64,000 nucleotides of DNA from the NCBI GenBank assembly GCA_002478945.1, contig DLKM01000028.1, positions 57,136 through 121,135 on the forward strand, in the 5' to 3' direction. The position numbers and the translations under genes were made by a program. Positions 24,274-62,167 of this stretch are shown piece after piece. This DNA is from Christensenella sp. UBA7588 (lineage in GTDB: Bacteria > Bacillota > Clostridia > Christensenellales > CAG-917). The notes below the pieces were generated by a model. That model had not been told where the DNA came from. It searched no databases and saw nothing but the letters and a program-made list of their open reading frames with translations. Numbering within the stretch: the first letter of the stretch is position 1; each line of letters starts with the position of its first letter.

Positions 24274-24849
24274 ATGAGCGAATTTTCAAAGACAGTCGTG
24301 CTTGCGTCCGCATCGCCGAGGCGCAAGGACATTCTGCACGATATGGGGCTTGATTTTCAAATCTTGCCTTCGAGCGTGGACGAGAGCAAAATCAAGGCGA
24401 TTTTGCCTTGCAATCTCGTTGTGCGACTTGCAAAAGCAAAAGCGGACGACGTTGCCGAGCGCACGCAGGACGTGAGCGTAATCTCTGCGGATACAATCGT
24501 AGCGCGCGGAATGCGTGTGTATGGAAAGCCCAAAGACGAGCAGGACGCCGTGCGTATGATAAAAAGCCTCAACGGCAGATGGCATACGGTGTATACCGGT
24601 GTTTGCGTGAGGTGCAAGGATAAAGAAAAGACGTTTTTCGTGTCGTCCAAGGTCAAATTTAAGAATCTTACCCAAGACGAAATAACCGCTTACGTCAGAG
24701 AGTGCAAGCCTCTTGACAAAGCCGGCGCATACGGAATACAAGACCACAGAATAGTTGAAAAATACAAGGGAAGTTACACAAATATCGTGGGACTGCCCGA
24801 GGAAAAACTTGCCGAGATATTGAGGCAAGTCGGAGTTATCAATGGCTAA
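24274..24849 (+). CDS. maf: Maf-like nucleoside triphosphate pyrophosphatase
   Basis: VVLASASPRRKDIL...AGAYGIQD are canonical Maf motifs. The start at ATG 24274 lies inside the longer listed ORF. Confidence 0.9.
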   Translation: MSEFSKTVVLASASPRRKDILHDMGLDFQILPSSVDESKIKAILPCNLVVRLAKAKADDVAERTQDVSVISADTIVARGMRVYGKPKDEQDAVRMIKSLNGRWHTVYTGVCVRCKDKEKTFFVSSKVKFKNLTQDEITAYVRECKPLDKAGAYGIQDHRIVEKYKGSYTNIVGLPEEKLAEILRQVGVING

Positions 24850-25840
24850 TATAGAACTTTCAATCGATTTGGGAAGCAAATTTATCACGATATACCAAAA
24901 AGGTATAGGTCTCGTTTTGCGCGAGCCTGCAATCGCAATCGCTACAAAGGCTCGCAATCGTCTCGAAATCAGAGACGCAGGCTACAGAGCCGAAAGCGTT
25001 ATGACGGGCGCGCTCGGCGGAGCGAGAGTCATTGCTCCCATAAAGGAAGGCGTTATCGTCGACGAAGAAATGGCAACGATGCTTCTTGCGTATTTTCTCA
25101 AAAAGATTATGCCCGAGGGCTTGTTTGCTCCGAGAATAAAAGCAATCGTGTCCATTTGCGAGTCGTCGTCCAGTTCGGACAGGCGCGTAGTTGAAAAATG
25201 CTGCCTTAAAGCGGGCATAAAAGAAGTTACCCTCGTGGAATCTGGCTTGAGCCTCCTTGCGTATACGGGTAGCATCGGCGGACTGTTTGTGGATATAGGC
25301 GGCGGAAAAACGGAAATCTCCGCGGTTACCAATCACGGAATCGCAACGGGTTGCTCCGTCAATATCGCAGGAGACGCTTTCAACAATGCAATCATCGACA
25401 GCCTGTATATGAATTACGGCGTTAAAGTGGGCGAATTCACAATCGAAAATCTCAAAAAATCCGCACTTTCTTTCTATGTCAACGACGAAGGCAGTTATGC
25501 CGTAAGCGGCGGCAGTTCGGACGGCTCTCCTCGTTCGCTCTACGTTACGGCGGAAGCAATGCGTAATGCGGTTATTCCGCTCGTAGACGACATTATCGAA
25601 GTGATTATGTCCGTTCTCAACCAAACTCCGCCCGAATTGTCCGCGGAAATCTTGCGCAAGGGCATATTCGTCAGCGGCGGAAGTTTGCATATCCCCGGTC
25701 TTATCGAATATCTCGAGCAAGCTCTCGAGCTTCCCGTCACACCCCTCAAAGACATCGAAAACGCTATTGCAATAGGCGGTGCGGGGTTCTTTGACGAGCG
25801 GAATCTTTTGTCGGATATGCTCGGCGTCAAATTGTATTAA
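24842..25840 (+). CDS. mreB: divergent MreB/Mbl-family actin-like protein
   Basis: SIDLGSKFITIYQKGIGLVLREPAIAIA, DIGGGKTEIS and FVSGGSLHIPGL match the MreB phosphate/adenosine motifs with substitutions. It overlaps the maf stop. Confidence 0.75.
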   Translation: MANIELSIDLGSKFITIYQKGIGLVLREPAIAIATKARNRLEIRDAGYRAESVMTGALGGARVIAPIKEGVIVDEEMATMLLAYFLKKIMPEGLFAPRIKAIVSICESSSSSDRRVVEKCCLKAGIKEVTLVESGLSLLAYTGSIGGLFVDIGGGKTEISAVTNHGIATGCSVNIAGDAFNNAIIDSLYMNYGVKVGEFTIENLKKSALSFYVNDEGSYAVSGGSSDGSPRSLYVTAEAMRNAVIPLVDDIIEVIMSVLNQTPPELSAEILRKGIFVSGGSLHIPGLIEYLEQALELPVTPLKDIENAIAIGGAGFFDERNLLSDMLGVKLY

Positions 25841-25973
25841 AGCGCACTATTTAGCGAATAACTGCGTCAACACCCGTTCGCTACAAAATCACGTACGCCT
25901 TGTACGTTGGGTTTTGTATCAAACGGGTGTTTTCTTGTTCTTCATCCGTTTGGGACGCTTTAATGCAATTTGA
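25827..25973 (+). repeat. three-tier nested hairpin element, copy 1 (39-nt core identical to 59839-59877)
   Basis: The outer stem 25827-25844 / 25956-25973 is 18 bp with one G.U. The middle stem 25869-25878 / 25922-25931 is 10 bp and perfect. The core is 25879-25917. The outer left arm contains the TAA stop at 25838-25840. Confidence 0.85.
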
Positions 25974-41512: not shown

Positions 41513-42010
41513 ATGCCAAAAGACAAGGTTGAAAAGACCAACGCGATGCGCCTTCTCGACGCAAAAAAAGCGGTGTATAAAGAGCATATTTTGCCGATAA
41601 CCGAAGCGGTTAGCGGAGAAGAAGCGGCAATGCTTTTAGGCGTTGACGCGAAGTACGTTTATAAAACGCTCGTAACCGTGGGCAAGAGCCTCGAACACTA
41701 TGTGTTCGTCGTACCAGTTGCGTGTGAACTCGACCTTAAAAAAGCCGCTCAAGCCGTCGGCGAAAAGAATATCGAAATGGTGCGTTCCAAAGACTTGCTT
41801 CCGCTCACGGGATACGTTCACGGCGGTTGCTCGCCGCTCGGTATGAAAAAATTGTTCAAAACGATTATCGACGCAAGTGCAGAAAGCGTGGACAAAATCT
41901 ATTTTTCCGGCGGGAAAATAGGCTATCAGATAGAAACCACGCTTGCGGAACTTAAAAAAGCAATACCTTTCAAACTTGCCGATATTACCGTCGATAAAAT
42001 TGAATGTTGA
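41513..42010 (+). CDS. ybaK: Cys-tRNA(Pro)/Cys-tRNA(Cys) deacylase YbaK
   Basis: KTNAMRLLD N-terminus, KTLV...VFVVPV, and GYVHGGCSPLGMKK. Start at ATG 41513. Confidence 0.85.
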   Translation: MPKDKVEKTNAMRLLDAKKAVYKEHILPITEAVSGEEAAMLLGVDAKYVYKTLVTVGKSLEHYVFVVPVACELDLKKAAQAVGEKNIEMVRSKDLLPLTGYVHGGCSPLGMKKLFKTIIDASAESVDKIYFSGGKIGYQIETTLAELKKAIPFKLADITVDKIEC

Positions 42011-42035
42011 CATATCTTGTTTTATCCCTCATAAT
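42007..42035 (+). promoter_or_regulatory. sigma-A promoter of paralog 1
   Basis: TTGACA (42007-42012), a 17-nt spacer, then CATAAT (42030-42035). Confidence 0.65.
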
Positions 42036-42053
42036 AAAATAAGGAGGGAGCTT

Positions 42054-43598
42054 ATGAAAACGAATATCAAAATGTTAATCTGCACGTTCGTAGCGATTGC
42101 GATGGCAATCCTGTCGGGCGTGTTTATTTTTGTTCCTCAAGGCGTTGCCGCGGCAAATTCCGCTATGCTTTATTTTGAGGGAGTAAACTCTGTAGGCGCA
42201 ATAATCAGAGATGAAGATTGTCCTATCGTCGTAGATAGAGAGGATTTGACTTTCGATATTTACAAAGACGATTTGAGGCGTGATTTTAGGGAAAATTCTC
42301 CCTCGGGCAGAGTCAGCGCAAAATACACGTTCAGAAATCCGACGGATATTACGGCAAAAGTCGGTTTGGTTTTTCCGTTCGGTTACGGTCCCGAGTACGA
42401 GTTCGAGTCTGAAAAAGACCAAAAAAAGTACCATTCCGTCAAAGTGAACGATGAGGAAATCGACAAGAGAATACGCTATACGTATAAGCCGAGAAAAGAG
42501 GAAAACGAAATTCTCCAGTTCGACCTCGGTAAAGACACGCAATTTTTGTCCGACGATTATATCGAAAACGATGTCGCACGGAAAGATACCAAACTTTACA
42601 AATACGTTTGCGATACGAATTACAAAGATACTTCTCAATGGGGCATCAATTTAGTATATACAGGCGAGTATTCGGGAATCATATTGTGCGATTTCACGTC
42701 TACGACGAGCAAAGAAAAGAATCCGGACTATTATGCGGGGTATAAGCGTTGTGCTACCGTCCAGTGTGACAAAGACGGATATGCAACGTTTTATAGTTTT
42801 GAAGAATTGAATACTTCCGACTTTGTTTGTTTGCCGCGTTACGATGCGACCGTAAGCAGATTCGAACTCAAATATGCAGGAGAAACGACGTTTTTTGACC
42901 TTGCCGAGTCGTTATACGACGATGAGAGCGGGATTGAAAAGGTCGACTGGTACAATGCGCTTATGGCAAGATTGTGCTTGTATCAAAGCGACGGATTTGC
43001 CGATTTGTCGTTTGATACAGATTGCAGATTCCGTTGGTACGATTACACGCTCCAATTTGCTCCAAATCAAACCATAGTAAACGAAGTCGTTGCGCCGCTT
43101 TATCCCACAATTAACGCAGAGGTTTCTCCGAACGTTTATAAATACACATATCTTCTTTCTCCAGCAAAGACGTGGGCGAGTTTCGGAGAGTTTCATTTGC
43201 GCATAAACACCGATTTGCAAACTCAAAACGTTTCTGTTGGCGAAATGGAAAGGCAAAACGACTACTACGAGTATACCTGCCAAGGCTTGCCTGACGGAGA
43301 GTTGACGTTTGACATATATGCAATCTCCGCATCCGTACCTAACGATTCGGAATCACAATCGAGAGCGGTTATTGCAGGAATAGCGATTGGCTTGGCGGTC
43401 ATGATAGTGCTGTCGACTTTAATCGTCTTTATCGTCATAGCATCTAAAAAACACAAGGAAAAGAAACTTTTGCAATCGTTCAAAAGTCAAAACCCGCACG
43501 TTGCCACGGAGAGTGAACCGCAAAGCGACGCTTCCGCTCCCATAAAAACAGATGCGGAAGAAGCGGAGAAAGATACTCCTGCCGACAACAATCAATAA
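42054..43598 (+). CDS. type-I membrane-anchored surface protein of unknown function, paralog 1 (514 aa)
   Basis: Signal peptide ..GVAAANS, an ectodomain of about 430 aa, a TM helix AVIAGIAIGLAVMIVLSTLIVFIVIA, and an acidic cytoplasmic tail. RBS AAGGAGGG upstream. Confidence 0.8.
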   Translation: MKTNIKMLICTFVAIAMAILSGVFIFVPQGVAAANSAMLYFEGVNSVGAIIRDEDCPIVVDREDLTFDIYKDDLRRDFRENSPSGRVSAKYTFRNPTDITAKVGLVFPFGYGPEYEFESEKDQKKYHSVKVNDEEIDKRIRYTYKPRKEENEILQFDLGKDTQFLSDDYIENDVARKDTKLYKYVCDTNYKDTSQWGINLVYTGEYSGIILCDFTSTTSKEKNPDYYAGYKRCATVQCDKDGYATFYSFEELNTSDFVCLPRYDATVSRFELKYAGETTFFDLAESLYDDESGIEKVDWYNALMARLCLYQSDGFADLSFDTDCRFRWYDYTLQFAPNQTIVNEVVAPLYPTINAEVSPNVYKYTYLLSPAKTWASFGEFHLRINTDLQTQNVSVGEMERQNDYYEYTCQGLPDGELTFDIYAISASVPNDSESQSRAVIAGIAIGLAVMIVLSTLIVFIVIASKKHKEKKLLQSFKSQNPHVATESEPQSDASAPIKTDAEEAEKDTPADNNQ

Positions 43599-43639
43599 GA
43601 CGACTATTAAACTGTAAAACACGTTTTAATAAAAAGGAA

Positions 43640-43675
43640 GGAGCAAAGCGCATTGCGATTTGCTCCTTTGTTTCA
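43640..43675 (+). terminator. rho-independent terminator of paralog 1
   Basis: GGAGCAAAGCG cattg CGATTTGCTCC (one mismatch) followed by TTTGTTTC. Confidence 0.7.
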
Positions 43676-43711
43676 TAATAAATATAAGTAAACATAGAGT
43701 AAAATTGAAGA

Positions 43712-43740
43712 TTGACATATTTTTTATTATCCCTCATAAT
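43712..43740 (+). promoter_or_regulatory. sigma-A promoter of paralog 2
   Basis: TTGACA (43712-43717), a 17-nt spacer, then CATAAT (43735-43740). Confidence 0.65.
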
Positions 43741-43758
43741 AAAACAAAGAGGGAGCGT

Positions 43759-45393
43759 ATGAAAACGAACATCAAAACGTTAATATGCACGTTCGTAGCG
43801 ATTGCGATGGCAATCCTGTCGGGCGTGTTTATTTTTGTTCCCGAAGGCGTTGCCGAGGCAAATTCCGCGTGGTATAAGTACGACGGCGTAGATGCGGTCG
43901 GCGCAATCGTAAGAGGCGAGAATTGCCCTATCGTCGTGGACAGAGAAGATTTGACTTTTGACATATACAAAGAAGATTTGGGAACTTTTTATGACGAATA
44001 CGAGGTTCCTGCGGGCAAAGTCAGCGCAAAATACACGTTCAGAAATCCGACGGACATTACGGCAAGGGTGGAATTGCTTTTCCCGTTCGGTTATGCGCCC
44101 GAGTACGAGGCGGACGATACGAGAGACAACAAAAAATATTATTCCGTCACGCAAGACGGCGAGGATATTCCCAAACGCATTAGAAATACTTATAGAGACA
44201 GAAGAAACGACAATTACGATATAGCGCAGTTCGACTTTGCAAAAGACACGGAGTATTTATCGGAAGATTATATCGAAAAATACGGTTTTACCAAAGATAC
44301 GAAAGTGTACGAGTACGTTTGCGGTGCGAACGTCTTTGGTAGGACTCAAAAGGCAATAAATATTATCAATAATACGGATTCGCAAATTCTGTGCAAACTG
44401 GAGCATTATCCCGGATTGACCAATAGATACGAAAAGGCCTATTGCGACGAGAACGGAAAGGCGACGTTCTTTTGTTTCGAAAAGCCGAACGAGGGAGATA
44501 TAAGCTGTCGCACATCAGACGACAATAGTATGAAATTGAATTATGAATTCGTAAAAGAAACGACCTTGTTTGAAGCATTGACTTCCGTGCGCCGCGAGGA
44601 CGACGACATCGAGGACGTGGATTTGTTCAATGCGTTTATCGCAAGATACGATGAGGAATATGCGTTTATAAACATCGATTTTGAAAAAGAATACAGATTC
44701 CGCTGGTACGATTATACTCTTGAATTTGCTCCAAATCAGACCATCGTCAACGAGGTAGTTGCGCCGCTTTATCCAAACGTTACGAGAGAATATATTCCGA
44801 AAGTGTATAAGTACACCTACTTGCTTTCTCCTGCAAAGACGTGGGCAAGTTTCGGAGAATTCCATCTGCGCATAAACACCGATATGTACGTCAAAAACGT
44901 GTCCGTCGGCAAAATGAAAAAGCACAAAGGCTATTACGAGTATACCTGCCAAGGCTTACCTGACGGCGAACTCACGTTTGAAATTTGCAAAAGTGCCGCG
45001 CCGATTACGAACAATGCGTGGTGGGGGCTTGTGATAACGGGAATCGCTCTTGCCGTAACGTCGGTAATTTGGATTCCGATACTTGTCCTTATCATTATAA
45101 AAGCGCACAACAAACGCAAAGAAAAGAAATTTTTGCAATCGTACACAGGTCAAAAACCGTTCTATAAAGCCGTGCCGAAAAACGAATTCGATGACGACGA
45201 TAGCTTATTTGACGGCAAATTCGATATTGACGAGCAAATGAGCGAAAATATAGCCGAATCGGCAGAGAATACGCCGAGTGAAGATTCTCAAAACGTAGCC
45301 ACGGAGAGCGAATCGCAAAACGACGCTTCCGCTCCCGTAAAAACAGATGCGAAAGGAGCAGAAACCGATACTCTCGCCGACAACAGTCAATAA
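43759..45393 (+). CDS. type-I membrane-anchored surface protein of unknown function, paralog 2 (544 aa)
   Basis: Same architecture as 42054-43598: a conserved signal peptide, a conserved membrane-proximal block (RFRWYDYTLEFAPNQTIVNEVVAPLYP...YKYTYLLSPAKTWASFGEFHLRINTD), a TM helix and a longer acidic tail. Confidence 0.8.
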   Translation: MKTNIKTLICTFVAIAMAILSGVFIFVPEGVAEANSAWYKYDGVDAVGAIVRGENCPIVVDREDLTFDIYKEDLGTFYDEYEVPAGKVSAKYTFRNPTDITARVELLFPFGYAPEYEADDTRDNKKYYSVTQDGEDIPKRIRNTYRDRRNDNYDIAQFDFAKDTEYLSEDYIEKYGFTKDTKVYEYVCGANVFGRTQKAINIINNTDSQILCKLEHYPGLTNRYEKAYCDENGKATFFCFEKPNEGDISCRTSDDNSMKLNYEFVKETTLFEALTSVRREDDDIEDVDLFNAFIARYDEEYAFINIDFEKEYRFRWYDYTLEFAPNQTIVNEVVAPLYPNVTREYIPKVYKYTYLLSPAKTWASFGEFHLRINTDMYVKNVSVGKMKKHKGYYEYTCQGLPDGELTFEICKSAAPITNNAWWGLVITGIALAVTSVIWIPILVLIIIKAHNKRKEKKFLQSYTGQKPFYKAVPKNEFDDDDSLFDGKFDIDEQMSENIAESAENTPSEDSQNVATESESQNDASAPVKTDAKGAETDTLADNSQ

Positions 45394-45433
45394 AATAGTT
45401 TTGCAACGGTCAAACACATCCTATAAAAACAAA

Positions 45434-45468
45434 GGAGCAAATCGCATTGCGATTTGCTCCGTTCGTTG
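45434..45468 (+). terminator. terminator hairpin of paralog 2
   Basis: GGAGCAAATCGC att GCGATTTGCTCC is a 12-bp perfect stem. The T tract is weak (GTTCGTTG). Confidence 0.6.
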
Positions 45469-45502
45469 ATTATATCGTTAAAAATACCTTATAAAAATAT
45501 TG

Positions 45503-58493: not shown

Positions 58494-59801
58494 ATGAAAG
58501 TATGTAAATTCGGCGGAACGTCAATGGCAAACGGCGCCACCGTATCGCAAGTTATCAAGATTATAGACAGTGATGCGGACAGGCGCTTTATCGTTGTCTC
58601 CGCACCCGGGAAACGCAACGTAACCGACGTCAAAATTACCGACGCGCTATATGCGTGTTACGACGAGAAAAAGAGAAACGGCAACTGTTCAAAGTCATTC
58701 GAAGTCGTGAAAAAACGCTTTTCCGATATGGTCAAAAGCCTCGATATAGATTTTGACGTTTTTCCCGCGCTCGACGATATAAAAGACAGAATCGAGCGTA
58801 GCGAAACGAGCGATTACGCCGCTTCGAGAGGGGAGTATCTGTGCGCGCGATTACTTGCCGCAAAACTCGGATTCGAGTTTGTGGACGCCGCCGACGTGAT
58901 AAAATTCGACGACGAGGGAAGATTGCTTACCTCGTATTCGCTCGGACTTATAAAAAAGAGGCTCGACGGCGTAAAGTATGCGGTCATTCCGGGCTTTTAC
59001 GGCTCGGATTGCAAAGATAACATCAAAACTTTTTCGAGAGGCGGCTCGGATATAACGGGCGCGCTCGTCGCAAGAGCGGTGTGCGCCGACGTTTACGAAA
59101 ACTGGACGGACGTGGACGGTTTTTTGCGTGCAGACCCTCGCATAGTGGAAAATCCTGCCTTAATCGATTGCTTGAGTTACAGAGAATTGAGAGAACTTTC
59201 GTATATGGGGGCGGAAGTGTTGCATCCCGAATCTATTTTCCCCGTGCGAAGCGCAGGCATTCCGATAAACGTCAAAAATACGTTCAATCCCTCTTGCGAG
59301 GGAACTATGATAGTTGCAGAAAAAAGCCTGCCCAAAGGAGATTGCGTAGTAACGGGTATTGCGGGCAAAAAGGGCTTTACAATCGTAAATATCGAAAAAG
59401 ATATGATGAATTCCGAGATAGGTTTCGGCAGAAAGGCATTGTCCGTTCTCGAGGCAGAGGGGATACCGTTCGAGCATATTCCGTCGGGAATAGACACTCT
59501 GTCCGTTGTTGTGAGAGACGAGTATATCGCAGGCAAAATGCAAAAAGTGCTTGCAAGCCTGCAGAAACTGCTCAACGCCGACAATATAGAGATACACAGC
59601 GGTCTTGCTCTCATCGCAACCGTCGGACACAATATGGCGTCGCGCCGCGGCACCGCCGCAACTCTTTTCAAAGCCCTCTCCGACAGCAACGTCAACGTCC
59701 GAATGATAGACCAAGGTTCTTCCGAACTGAATATAATCGTTGCGGTGGACGCAACGGATTACGAGAAGGCTATCAACGCCATATACAACTCGTTTGTATA
59801 A
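58494..59801 (+). CDS. aspartate kinase
   Basis: MKVCKFGGTSMANG N-terminus, FSRGGSDITGA, and WTDVDGFLRADPRIV, with two C-terminal ACT-like regions. RBS GGAGAAAGG upstream. Confidence 0.9.
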   Translation: MKVCKFGGTSMANGATVSQVIKIIDSDADRRFIVVSAPGKRNVTDVKITDALYACYDEKKRNGNCSKSFEVVKKRFSDMVKSLDIDFDVFPALDDIKDRIERSETSDYAASRGEYLCARLLAAKLGFEFVDAADVIKFDDEGRLLTSYSLGLIKKRLDGVKYAVIPGFYGSDCKDNIKTFSRGGSDITGALVARAVCADVYENWTDVDGFLRADPRIVENPALIDCLSYRELRELSYMGAEVLHPESIFPVRSAGIPINVKNTFNPSCEGTMIVAEKSLPKGDCVVTGIAGKKGFTIVNIEKDMMNSEIGFGRKALSVLEAEGIPFEHIPSGIDTLSVVVRDEYIAGKMQKVLASLQKLLNADNIEIHSGLALIATVGHNMASRRGTAATLFKALSDSNVNVRMIDQGSSELNIIVAVDATDYEKAINAIYNSFV

Positions 59802-59923
59802 ACGCGTCAAATAGCGCCTGACTTTGGCAGCGCGCATCCGCTACAAAATCACGTACGCCTTGTACGTTGGGTTTTGTCTCGGACGCGCGCTTTCGCGTTA
59901 TCCATCTATTTGACGCGTTTATA
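59797..59923 (+). repeat. three-tier nested hairpin element, copy 2 (39-nt core identical to 25879-25917)
   Basis: The outer stem 59797-59814 / 59906-59923 is 18 bp and perfect. The middle stem 59829-59840 / 59880-59891 pairs 11 of 12. The core is 59839-59877. The outer left arm contains the TAA stop at 59799-59801. Confidence 0.85.
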
Positions 59924-60380
59924 ATATAGGGGTGGGGTGTTGAGCGAATAACTGTGTTAGAGCGCATTAAGTGCGTTTTTAACAGAGTGTATCGTAGCTC
60001 CTCTAAATACAATAACCCCCTCTTTCCGGACACGCCGGTATTTCTCCCGCCACTCGTATAGGGACATTCCTCTACAATGGAAAACATCGCTCGCGGGGGA
60101 GACAACGGCACTCACATAGATAGGGATATTTCTCTCATTATGCCACCGTCCTTTGTGTGACTGCTACGCAACAACACGTCACAGTCGGACGGTACTAATC
60201 GTCGAGTTCGGCGCTCAAAGGCTCGCCGCCTTGCGGCTCGAATCCCGTCTTCGAAATCATACATACCGTGTATAGGTTACGCTTCGAATGGACACATTCC
60301 GCGTATAAGCACGCAATAAGCGATTTGTTGATAAGTGTGCCTTGAACGAGAGCGGAACAAGCGGTAAAACAAAACAACCC
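59924..60380. ncRNA. candidate structured non-coding RNA or decayed element of unknown family
   Basis: About 450 nt with coding-like GC, but no credible ORF or RBS. There are many local hairpins, several with G.U pairs that work only on the + strand. An AT-rich pckA promoter region lies on the 3' side. Confidence 0.3.
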
Positions 60381-60562
60381 TTAAAATTTTCTTAAACATT
60401 TGCTAAATATTTTTATTGATAAAAATTTACTTTTATTTTGTCGCAGAATATTGTATAATAACGGCAATGGATATTAAATATCCTTAATACGGTAAAATAA
60501 TTCGTATCTCGTCAATCGGCGCGGTGCGAAATAAAGATTTTTTATAAGGAGAGATGATATTT

Positions 60563-62167
60563 ATGAAAAATATCGACTTGACAAAATACGGTATCACAGG
60601 TACGACCGAAGTGGTGTACAACCCCTCTTACGAGATGTTGTTTGAGGAAGAAACCAAGCCCGAACTTCAAGGCTATGAAAAAGGTCAGGTAAGCGAACTC
60701 GGCGCAGTCAACGTTATGACGGGCGTTTATACGGGTCGTTCGCCCAAGGACAAATTTATCGTCGTCGACGACAACTCCAAAGACACGATTTGGTGGACTT
60801 CGGACGAATACAAGAACGACAACCATCCCGCATCTCAAGAAGCGTGGAAAGCGGTCAAGGACATCGCAATCAAAGAGTTGTCAAACAAGAGATTGTTTGT
60901 CGTGGACGCATTCTGCGGCGCAAACAAGGACACTCGTATGGCTATCCGCTTTATCGTGGAAGTTGCTTGGCAAGCGCACTTTGTCAAGAATATGTTTATC
61001 AAGCCGACTGCGGAAGAACTTGAAAACTTCGAGCCTGATTTCGTAGTTTACAATGCGTCCAAAGCAAAAGTGGAGAATTATAAAGAACTCGGTCTCAACT
61101 CCGAAACGGCGGTGGTATTCAACATCACGAGCCGCGAGCAAGTAATCATCAACACTTGGTACGGCGGAGAAATGAAGAAAGGTATGTTCTCTATGATGAA
61201 CTATTATTTGCCGCTCAAAGGCATTGCGTCTATGCATTGCTCGGCAAACACCGATATGGACGGCAAAAACACCGCAATCTTCTTCGGACTTTCAGGCACG
61301 GGCAAAACCACTCTTTCCACCGACCCCAAACGTTTGCTTATCGGCGACGACGAACACGGCTGGGACGACAACGGCGTATTCAACTTCGAGGGCGGTTGCT
61401 ATGCAAAGGTCATAAACCTCGACAAGGATTCCGAACCCGACATTTACAACGCAATCAAACGCAACGCTTTGCTTGAAAACGTAACTTTGGACGAAAACGG
61501 CAAAATCGATTTCGCAGATAAGAGCGTGACGGAAAACACTCGTGTTTCCTATCCTATCGACCATATCAAGAACATCGTTCGCCCCGTTTCCGCGGCTCCT
61601 GACGCAAAGAGCGTTATCTTCTTGTCCGCAGACGCATTCGGAGTATTGCCGCCCGTCTCCATTCTCACGCCCGAGCAAACGCAATACTACTTCTTGTCCG
61701 GTTTTACCGCAAAACTTGCTGGTACCGAGCGCGGCATAACCGAGCCGACTCCGACTTTCTCCGCTTGCTTCGGTCAAGCGTTCCTCGAATTGCATCCCAC
61801 CAAATATGCAGAGGAACTCGTCAAGAAGATGCAAAAGAGCGGTGCGAAAGCATACCTCGTCAACACGGGTTGGAACGGCACGGGCAAGCGTATCTCCATA
61901 AAGGATACCAGAGGCATCATCGACGCGATTTTGAGCGGCGACATCGACAAAGCACCCACCAAGACCATTCCGTATTTCAACTTTGAAGTGCCGACTCAAC
62001 TTGCAGGTGTGGACAGCGGCATTCTCGACCCGCGCGACACTTATGCAAACGTCGAAGATTGGAACAAGAAAGCGGTTGACCTTGCAGGTCGCTTCATCAA
62101 GAACTTTGCGAAGTACGAAGGCAACGCTCACGGCAAAGCACTCGTTCCCGCAGGTCCGCAACTTTAA
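60563..62167 (+). CDS. pckA: phosphoenolpyruvate carboxykinase (ATP)
   Basis: [19 protein letters not shown], the [13 protein letters not shown] kinase-1a motif, and [12 protein letters not shown] 60563 is correctly spaced from RBS AAGGAGAG. Confidence 0.95.

Follow-up and report, generated by a model that had tools for sequence, protein, structure and literature searches.

A probable mobile-type, modular intergenic repeat family with a strand-specific fold in uncultured Christensenellales-like gut Clostridia

The bacterial interspersed mosaic elements (BIMEs) of enterobacteria are mosaics of repetitive extragenic palindromes (REPs) mobilised by RAYT, a Y1 transposase of the HUH type, while the BOX elements of Streptococcus pneumoniae are assembled as boxA-boxB(n)-boxC. 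Together with the palindrome-associated transposable elements (PATEs), these are the closest known systems, in behaviour, to an element that lies between ask, the gene for aspartate kinase, and pckA in a 64,000-nt stretch of DNA from Christensenella sp. UBA7588 (hereafter the window, whose numbering is used throughout). We argue that the block at 59959-60348 is probably one copy of a non-autonomous, modular family of intergenic repeats that folds strand-specifically. The family is uncatalogued, belongs to uncultured Christensenellales-like gut Clostridia and encodes nothing; its unit is an ordered string of hairpin modules, consisting of one or more 5' modules, helices P2 and P3, a variable P5, P6, P7 and 33-nt 3' units.

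Like BIMEs and REPs, the repeat is extragenic and multi-copy, occurs on both strands, and forms mosaics of hairpin modules with interchangeable stem variants; it often lies beside gene 3' ends or terminators, has neither terminal inverted repeats nor an internal gene, and folds on one strand. It differs in that the unit measures about 325-390 nt, with at least eight ordered helices of which two are long-range, whereas REPs are palindromes of 20-40 nt, in that its tandem copies run head to tail whereas REP arrays alternate in orientation, and in its host lineage. With BOX elements it shares a fixed order of modules, some repeated a variable number of times, a lack of coding capacity, dispersal in around a hundred or more copies, and a predicted stable structure if transcribed. 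However, it has no sequence relationship to BOX, its unit is larger with more helices, and its ends are direct, whereas the A and C ends of BOX are partly complementary.

The limits of the block come from a comparison of strains. Sister-strain contigs were chosen as those encoding a PckA identical to that of the window, and their spacers were then aligned (metagenome and genome loci are labelled L below). Two of these, L003 and L004, lack exactly 59959-60348, with flanks that are 97-98% identical; L005, L006, L206 and L207 carry the block. The edges are ambiguous by 6 nt, 59965-60354 being equally possible, and in the L003/L004 alignment the empty site reads GTGTT-AGAGTG-GAACAAG. The variable features of the locus are as follows.

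59959-60348, + strand: repeat copy of the window, a 390-nt block present or absent between strains (spacer alignment)
59959-59964, + strand: left direct repeat AGAGCG at the block border; the empty allele has a single AGAGTG
60349-60354, + strand: right direct repeat AGAGCG at the block border
60090-60114, + strand: 25-nt deletion in the allele of JGI contig Ga0116650_1000001, removing the 3' strand of P2
60061-60105, + strand: substitution patch in L207 and L208 (14 substitutions and a 1-nt insertion), the surrounding ~8 kb being identical

The AGAGCG direct repeat at both edges is, in this single case, a possible target-site duplication, and the patch in L207 and L208 can, from its sequence, be read as ectopic gene conversion. 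There are four alleles of the repeat locus within an otherwise near-identical 8 kb, and assemblies from two samples break inside the block. Absence, deletion and patch therefore mark the locus as a hotspot of structural change and the block as dispensable; it is no conserved part of the ask or pckA transcription units. No further filled/empty pairs were present among the 119 metagenome loci listed, and PckA homologues yielded no outgroup allele, pckA of other species lying in other contexts where the repeat was not seen.

Relatives of the block are widespread. In species-representative genomes the Ask of the nearest relatives is 74-80% identical to that of the window, and six of them carry a homologue of the block downstream of ask; L013, L014, L015 and L016 have it on the same strand, L029 and L009 have it inverted. 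The distribution is patchy: the repeat is absent after ask in L008, a close relative of L009, and absent in L012 although ask and pckA are adjacent there. A degenerate motif built to match all six copies, for which about 0.03 chance hits are expected, was found on scanning metagenome contigs in at least 119 stretches, nearly all from human-gut assemblies, and a profile hidden Markov model (nhmmer) recovered 198 copies or fragments in the loci examined. Copies occur on both strands and several to a contig, with at least six on the 218-kb contig UOJS01000012.1; full copies stand head to tail in L117, L156 and L195, additional 3' modules are found in L014, L151 and L202, and many contigs terminate inside a copy. 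The 77 full-length copies with flanks reduce to 73 distinct ones at 97% identity. Compared with copies at unrelated loci the window copy is 78-86% identical, and 117 sequences (loci plus window, alleles of its own locus included) match it at E <= 1e-10.

The copies are intergenic, and their neighbours are varied: 400 open reading frames (ORFs) within 2.5 kb of copies fall into 264 clusters of ordinary housekeeping genes, and clustering them gave no recurrent or transposase-like neighbour. Beyond their 3' end, 74 of 106 copies face a convergent gene; beyond the 5' end the gene shares the strand of the copy in 48 cases and is on the other strand in 62, and each of the four orientation classes relative to neighbours is represented. 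Terminator-like hairpins lie near 26 of 94 5' ends and 12 of 115 3' ends, a difference that is suggestive only. The family was not found in phage and plasmid collections or viral contigs, and a full-text search of the literature, sequence strings included but limited as a test, found no description of it. Gain, loss and rewriting between near-identical strains, together with the many copies, thus point to a mobile-type repeat and not to a one-off RNA gene or a regulator of adjacent genes, and a repeat of this kind accounts for how many copies there are, for their unrelated flanks, two orientations and tandems, and for the patchiness, the presence/absence polymorphism and the decay of single copies. 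Among the candidates put forward in a preliminary description of 59924-60380, which was made from the sequence alone, the non-autonomous mobile-element RNA is consequently the best supported, as a multi-copy dispersed family present or absent between strains.

The anatomy of the unit was read from an alignment of the distinct copies, in which the order of parts is constant. The core common to copies is about 325 nt long with at least eight helices. In the window the parts are as follows; pairing percentages are taken from the covariation analysis described further below.

59972-60296, + strand: family core, where similarity among the 73 distinct copies begins and ends (conservation profile, alignment, nhmmer)
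59963-59980, + strand: small left-edge hairpin, CGCAT/GTGCG with T5 after it; its residues are present in ~10% of copies, and L015 has the hairpin too
59984-60004, + strand: P1 hairpin, AGAG/CTCT here and AGAGT/ACTCT or GTTTT/AAAAC elsewhere, next to a conserved CTAAAT; helix 1 is 77% paired, with 2 pairs changed on both sides
60026-60038, + strand: hairpin CCGG-ACACG-CCGG, with CCC-TTTC-GGG at the equivalent place in other subtypes
60041-60102, + strand: P2, in which TTTCTCCCGC (60041-60050) pairs with GCGGGGGAGA (60093-60102), enclosing a small hairpin
60107-60144, + strand: P3, GGC/GCC, AUAG/UUAU and AGGGA/UCUCU, with several G.U pairs; helices 2 and 3 are 98% and 81% paired
60145-60193, + strand: P5, a long hairpin with ACCGTCC/GGACGGT, inner TGTGAC/GTCACA and the conserved loop GCTACGCAACA; helix 5 is 90% paired, both sides having changed in 4 of 6 pairs
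60200-60213, + strand: P6 hairpin CGTC/GGCG, 98.6% paired, in which U.G alternates with U-A (39 versus 15 copies)
60225-60237, + strand: P7 hairpin GCCGC-CTT-GCGGC; helix 7 is 100% paired, with 16 cells changed on both sides
60238-60254, + strand: P8, TCGAA/TTCGA; helix 8 is 80% paired
60249-60307, + strand: two tandem 33-nt 3' units (CTTCGAA..CCGyGTATArG), the number of which varies among copies
60330-60354, + strand: 3'-terminal unit GATAAGTGTGCCTTGAACGAGAGCG, which matches the family end ..ATAAG-N5-CCTTGAATGAGTG and was aligned to the window copy by eye

The 5' module consists of (TTC)CTCTACAAGAG, the P1 hairpin, CTAAAT, 8-9 variable nt and a run of C; one to three 5' modules occur per copy, many copies having two or three, and the 3' units number one to four. 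For P2 the family has three sequence versions, the one in the window (TTTCTCCCGC/GCGGGGGAGA) and two others (GTGTTTTCCC/GGGACAACAC and TTCCCCTATTGC/GCAAGAGGGGAA), and for P5, closed by an invariant AC/GT, it has four interchangeable stem versions, one of which has been exchanged for another between the orthologous copies of L013 and L014. Inserts of 86 nt and 48 nt occupy fixed places in 20 and 17 copies respectively and are also found alone elsewhere. A repeat search on 59700-60600 found no terminal inverted repeats at 59959/60348, and the family consensus has direct ends rather than inverted ones. The 3'-terminal motif (..TGAATGAGTG) is found again immediately 5' of many copies not preceded by a full element; in tandem pairs 4-18 nt separate the abutting ends, and the left flank kept in the empty allele (GAATAATCGTGTTAGAGTG) resembles, weakly and by eye, a degenerate terminal unit.

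All the hairpins drawn in the preliminary description are present in the sequence. Those at 60026-60038, 60041-60050/60093-60102, 60145-60151/60187-60193 with 60156-60161/60178-60183, and 60225-60237 are family-wide, and TCGAA/TTCGA at 60238-60254 is retained in ~80% of cells, whereas those at 59963-59980, 60286-60299 and 60301-60314 lie in parts private to the window copy. The hairpin-rich, ORF-less stretch is likewise real, with the difference that its natural unit is 59959-60348 (or 59965-60354) and not 59924-60380.

How might such a repeat spread? It would multiply as a non-autonomous mobile element, copied by an enzyme that is encoded elsewhere and that would recognise the folded + single strand instead of terminal inverted repeats. 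Insertion could be of the single-strand 'peel-and-paste' type, beside a motif resembling the element's own 3' end, as with the HUH/Y1 systems (IS200/IS605-derived PATEs, REP/RAYT); an equally good fit would be recombination of direct terminal units with one another, with a solo unit left behind. Pointing to these mechanisms are the direct ends, the apparently seamless empty site, the flank motif that resembles the element's own end and the one-strand fold, and the empty site is compatible with insertion after AGAGYG, which also ends the element, as judged from one filled/empty pair. Because no enzyme was found and the filled/empty pair is the sole one, copying by one or other of these routes is put forward tentatively. 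The 390-nt difference itself may have arisen by insertion, by excision or through slippage that deleted the sequence between AGAGCG repeats. After insertion, copies would be reshaped by ectopic gene conversion, to which the exchanged P5 version of L013 and L014 is also ascribed, by slippage that changes the number of modules, and by deletion. The copy at this locus, flanked by the terminator hairpin of ask and the AT-rich promoter of pckA, would need no function there, and read-through from ask would merely append a stable multi-hairpin tail.

As in PATEs and other non-autonomous IS200-IS605 elements, there are no terminal inverted repeats, hairpins lie near the ends, the one empty site looks seamless, a motif in the left flank seems to resemble the element's 3' end and one strand is the folded or active one; as in the right ends of TnpB elements that bear omega-RNA, the 3' part could carry a structured RNA. 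Unlike PATEs, however, the repeat has no tnpA or tnpB relative sharing its sequence in ~120 loci with kb-scale flanks, its target motif is defined here by one filled/empty pair, and its orientation is biased, 63% of copies being antisense to neighbouring genes, which is unlike reports for IS200/IS605. It resembles miniature inverted-repeat transposable elements (Correia, ERIC) in being small, non-coding, multi-copy, intergenic and polymorphic between strains; it differs from them in its lack of terminal inverted repeats, while the 6-nt direct repeat at its edges may be a target-site duplication.

Several observations weigh against a mobile-type repeat. A tblastn search of 1.63 Mb of loci found no IS200-like TnpA, nor a RAYT/Y1 gene of the kind that accompanies BIMEs, the test being a weak one. 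There is a sole filled/empty pair, in which slippage deletion between the AGAGCG repeats is possible instead of insertion or excision. The left edge of the block lies 7-13 nt beyond the family-wide core, including the small hairpin private to the window copy (the right edge coincides with the family 3' end), and blastn and nhmmer over the 64-kb window found a single copy only. Between L013 and L014 the orthologous copies show 90-93% identity, on a par with the neighbouring coding gene (ask, 77-92%), compared with 58-70% for other spacer DNA. Finally, at least eight helices over ~325 nt with a one-strand excess of G.U pairs exceed what the ends of a DNA transposon need, which leaves room for a function at the RNA level.

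The fold itself is specific to one strand. The + strand has a minimum free energy of -143.5 kcal/mol (z = -2.70, with 1 of 100 shuffles as good), against z = -0.40 for the - strand. A structure of 38 pairs in eight helices was tested on an alignment of 54 distinct copies: 88.0% of cells are paired, compared with 33-49% when the partners are slid, and 84 cells carry double changes, compared with 39 +/- 6 in shuffles (0 of 500 as high), although the structure was derived from the window copy and sequence kinship inflates such pairing statistics. The compensatory changes are mostly in P5 and P7, on which RNAalifold agrees. G.U exceeds A.C by 206:77 on the + strand, so that the strand as given is the one that folds, either as RNA or as single-stranded DNA. 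For P2 the duplex energy is not significant against composition-matched shuffles (median z -1.4) because both of its strands are C- or G-rich, and the case for this helix is accordingly its three sequence versions. The preliminary description had weakly preferred the + strand; relatives, compensatory changes and a fold better than shuffled controls, all of which it had named as checks, have also been found.

This fold could instead have been selected at the RNA level, the family being a functional structured RNA of ~330 nt that is incidentally multi-copy or mobile - for example a ribozyme, a family of sponge or regulatory RNAs, or an RNA that serves as scaffold or guide to a nuclease or recombinase whose gene lies elsewhere. 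The multi-helix fold with its compensatory changes, the three or four versions of P2 and P5, the invariant loop motifs, the + strand bias in both G.U pairs and folding z-score, and the L013/L014 copies conserved like coding DNA are all in keeping with such a molecule, as is the convergent gene that so often faces the 3' end, which would be expected with selection against outward transcription. Repeat-family hairpin modules, however, keep their pairing without any RNA function too. Further points against such a molecule are that near-identical strains have lost helix strands or taken up non-compensated patches, modules are found alone and in variable number, the ends have no conserved promoter or terminator, and no partner gene recurs nearby. 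Nor do the variable stems look like copy-specific guides, since they come in a few discrete versions; sharing of k-mers between flank and interior is weakly raised, an excess that is due to tandem modules. We therefore regard a functional RNA as an unlikely primary explanation, while the elaborate fold, the invariant loops and the L013/L014 conservation together make one carried by the repeat a lesser possibility.

Large bacterial non-coding RNAs offer a point of reference here. OLE, ROOL, GOLLD, raiA and HEARO are similarly several hundred nt long, with many conserved helices and an odd intergenic composition, and HEARO, ROOL and GOLLD are, comparably, linked to mobile DNA. In contrast to these, the repeat matches none of their Rfam models, has far higher copy numbers per genome, varies in its number of modules and decays copy by copy. 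The candidate novel mid-size structured RNA of the preliminary description survives in that a conserved, covarying + strand fold exists that is not in Rfam; it fails in that this is not a single-copy RNA gene, has no promoter or terminator defining a transcript, and decays among copies. There is perhaps a slight chance that the family is a new class of large (~330 nt) structured RNA on a mobile element, acting as scaffold, guide or ribozyme with a Christensenellales protein encoded elsewhere. If so, the RNA would promote its own spread or have host nucleic acids as its target, and its functional core would be the conserved helices and the invariant loops CTAAAT, GCTACGCAACA and GTAC...CGTCAAG.

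Could the block serve ask or pckA in particular, as a structured 3' UTR (untranslated region) of the former or a long leader of the latter? It does lie between the two, on their strand, L015 has a related copy between the same two genes, and L016 has one downstream of ask, where the contig ends before the next gene. Such a locus-specific cis-regulatory RNA is nevertheless very improbable: the block is missing in L003 and L004 despite an identical PckA and the same promoter region, the copies in L029 and L009 are inverted relative to ask, the next gene is not pckA in L013, L014 and L029, pckA loci of other species are without the repeat, and more than 100 copies stand beside unrelated genes. 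The long structured 3' UTR suggested in the preliminary description falls for the same reasons. Riboswitch, leader and 3' UTR elements were also rejected as classes, the repeat having no constant position or orientation to any one gene class across the 264 neighbour clusters.

The spacer in which the block sits is the widest gap of the window, at 752 nt from the ask stop at 59801 to the pckA start at 60554 (~760 nt had been estimated), against a median of 61 nt between ORFs of at least 110 aa on a crude ORF map; the next two gaps, of 558 and 533 nt, both contain small ORFs. GC content is 0.49-0.54 across 59950-60324 and 0.27-0.29 across 60325-60549, the AT-rich promoter and leader of pckA. ORFs within the spacer are of 35-112 aa only, that of 112 aa spanning the strain-polymorphic boundary, and Pfam gave no match at E <= 1 for any of seven local ORFs, in agreement with the earlier remark that the GC is coding-like with no credible ORF. 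Despite this GC and these short ORFs, a decayed protein-coding gene, or chance hairpins in an ordinary spacer, can be dismissed as next to impossible, there being no Pfam match, family indels of module size and conservation that tracks helices instead of a reading frame, while chance is excluded by the ~200 related copies; the decayed gene had been among the earlier candidates.

Known RNA classes were sought as well. Rfam 15 (4227 models) gave no match at gathering score in the whole window, riboswitches and rRNA included, and at E <= 10 on 59700-60650 nothing but a chance snoRNA match in the AT-rich leader; repeat copies in L029, L009, L156 and L117 had no Rfam match either, and ARAGORN found no tRNA or tmRNA. 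A scan for sigma-70 promoters and terminators found nothing delimiting a transcript of the block. A group II intron, ORF-less and class C forms included, was rejected, with no Intron_gpII or group-II-D1D4 match even at E <= 10, and is also ruled out because 325-390 nt is too short.

Further observations concern the surroundings of the repeat. Compared with L015 (4324-4982, corresponding to spacer 59802-60553), the window has a PckA that is 98% identical and a promoter-proximal spacer that is close by eye, whereas Ask is merely 75% identical and the repeat ~75-80%, which points to recombination with a break point at the repeat's right edge. Some publicly available gene calls for close PckA homologues (P0001-P0006) run to 611-733 aa, with pckA extended far upstream, and are probably mis-annotated across upstream non-coding DNA. 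On the ask side the block has the following neighbour, which is not part of the repeat.

59797-59923, no strand assigned: REP-like, terminator-like hairpin of 127 nt, right after the ask stop

An equivalent 127-nt hairpin lies at 25836-25962, after the stop of an mreB-like gene (24842-25840). The two share an identical core (CACGTACGCCTTGTACGT), their arms differ yet are complementary, and the hairpin is terminator-like on both strands. From its sequence it appears to represent a second, REP-like repeat family whose members seem to act as gene terminators. The core occurs 59 times per 1.0 Mb of metagenome loci, and from core density in the loci examined we estimate that this second repeat is enriched ~12-fold near copies of the large one, which fits residence in permissive space behind gene ends. 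In L003 and L004 gene calling places an ORF of 63 aa across the neighbouring hairpin.

The spacer after ask serves generally as a site of landing or turnover. L008 (4315-5200) carries there a different insert of ~290 nt, with a terminator hairpin (AAAAAAGCACTCGnCGAGTGCTT) duplicated at its borders; in L011 (2790-3445) a single hairpin stands where L008 has the insert, and L009 has the large repeat inverted at the same spot, the break points in the L008/L009/L011 comparison not being clean. A third intergenic motif, ..TCCTGAGC..GTCGAAGGATCTAGC..GCGCCCGATAAGTTTTT, lies upstream of several copies (L013:4541-4600, L014, L117:10210-10284, L119, L122, L144, L147 and L196) and is probably another small repeat of these genomes. 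Elsewhere in the window, 41995-45474 is a tandem duplication of ~1.7 kb, 72-85% identical, that carries a conserved 41-nt hairpin at 43633-43673 and 45427-45467 and looks like tandem paralogous genes. Two clean indels, of 180 and 131 nt, distinguish the near-identical contigs L091 (6649-6830 and 7568-7700) and L195; both fall within a long ORF and have nothing to do with the repeat.

Members of the Christensenellales are prominent in the human gut microbiota and mostly uncultured. The repeat is abundant among them and absent from every library searched. Metagenome assemblies break at it, several contigs ending within a copy; it creates strain-level structural variation beside housekeeping genes, and repeats in the ask-pckA spacer are liable to be overlaid with spurious small ORFs by gene callers. 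As this locus illustrates, a block that is dense in hairpins, lacks ORFs and has coding-like GC can be a mobile repeat instead of a unique RNA gene. Selfish-repeat behaviour is here combined with an unusually elaborate, strand-specific and covarying fold, which makes the family a test case for whether such folds serve single-stranded DNA transposition, an RNA partner of an enzyme, or host regulation, with a modest chance that an RNA-protein mobility or regulatory system is hidden in the repeat.

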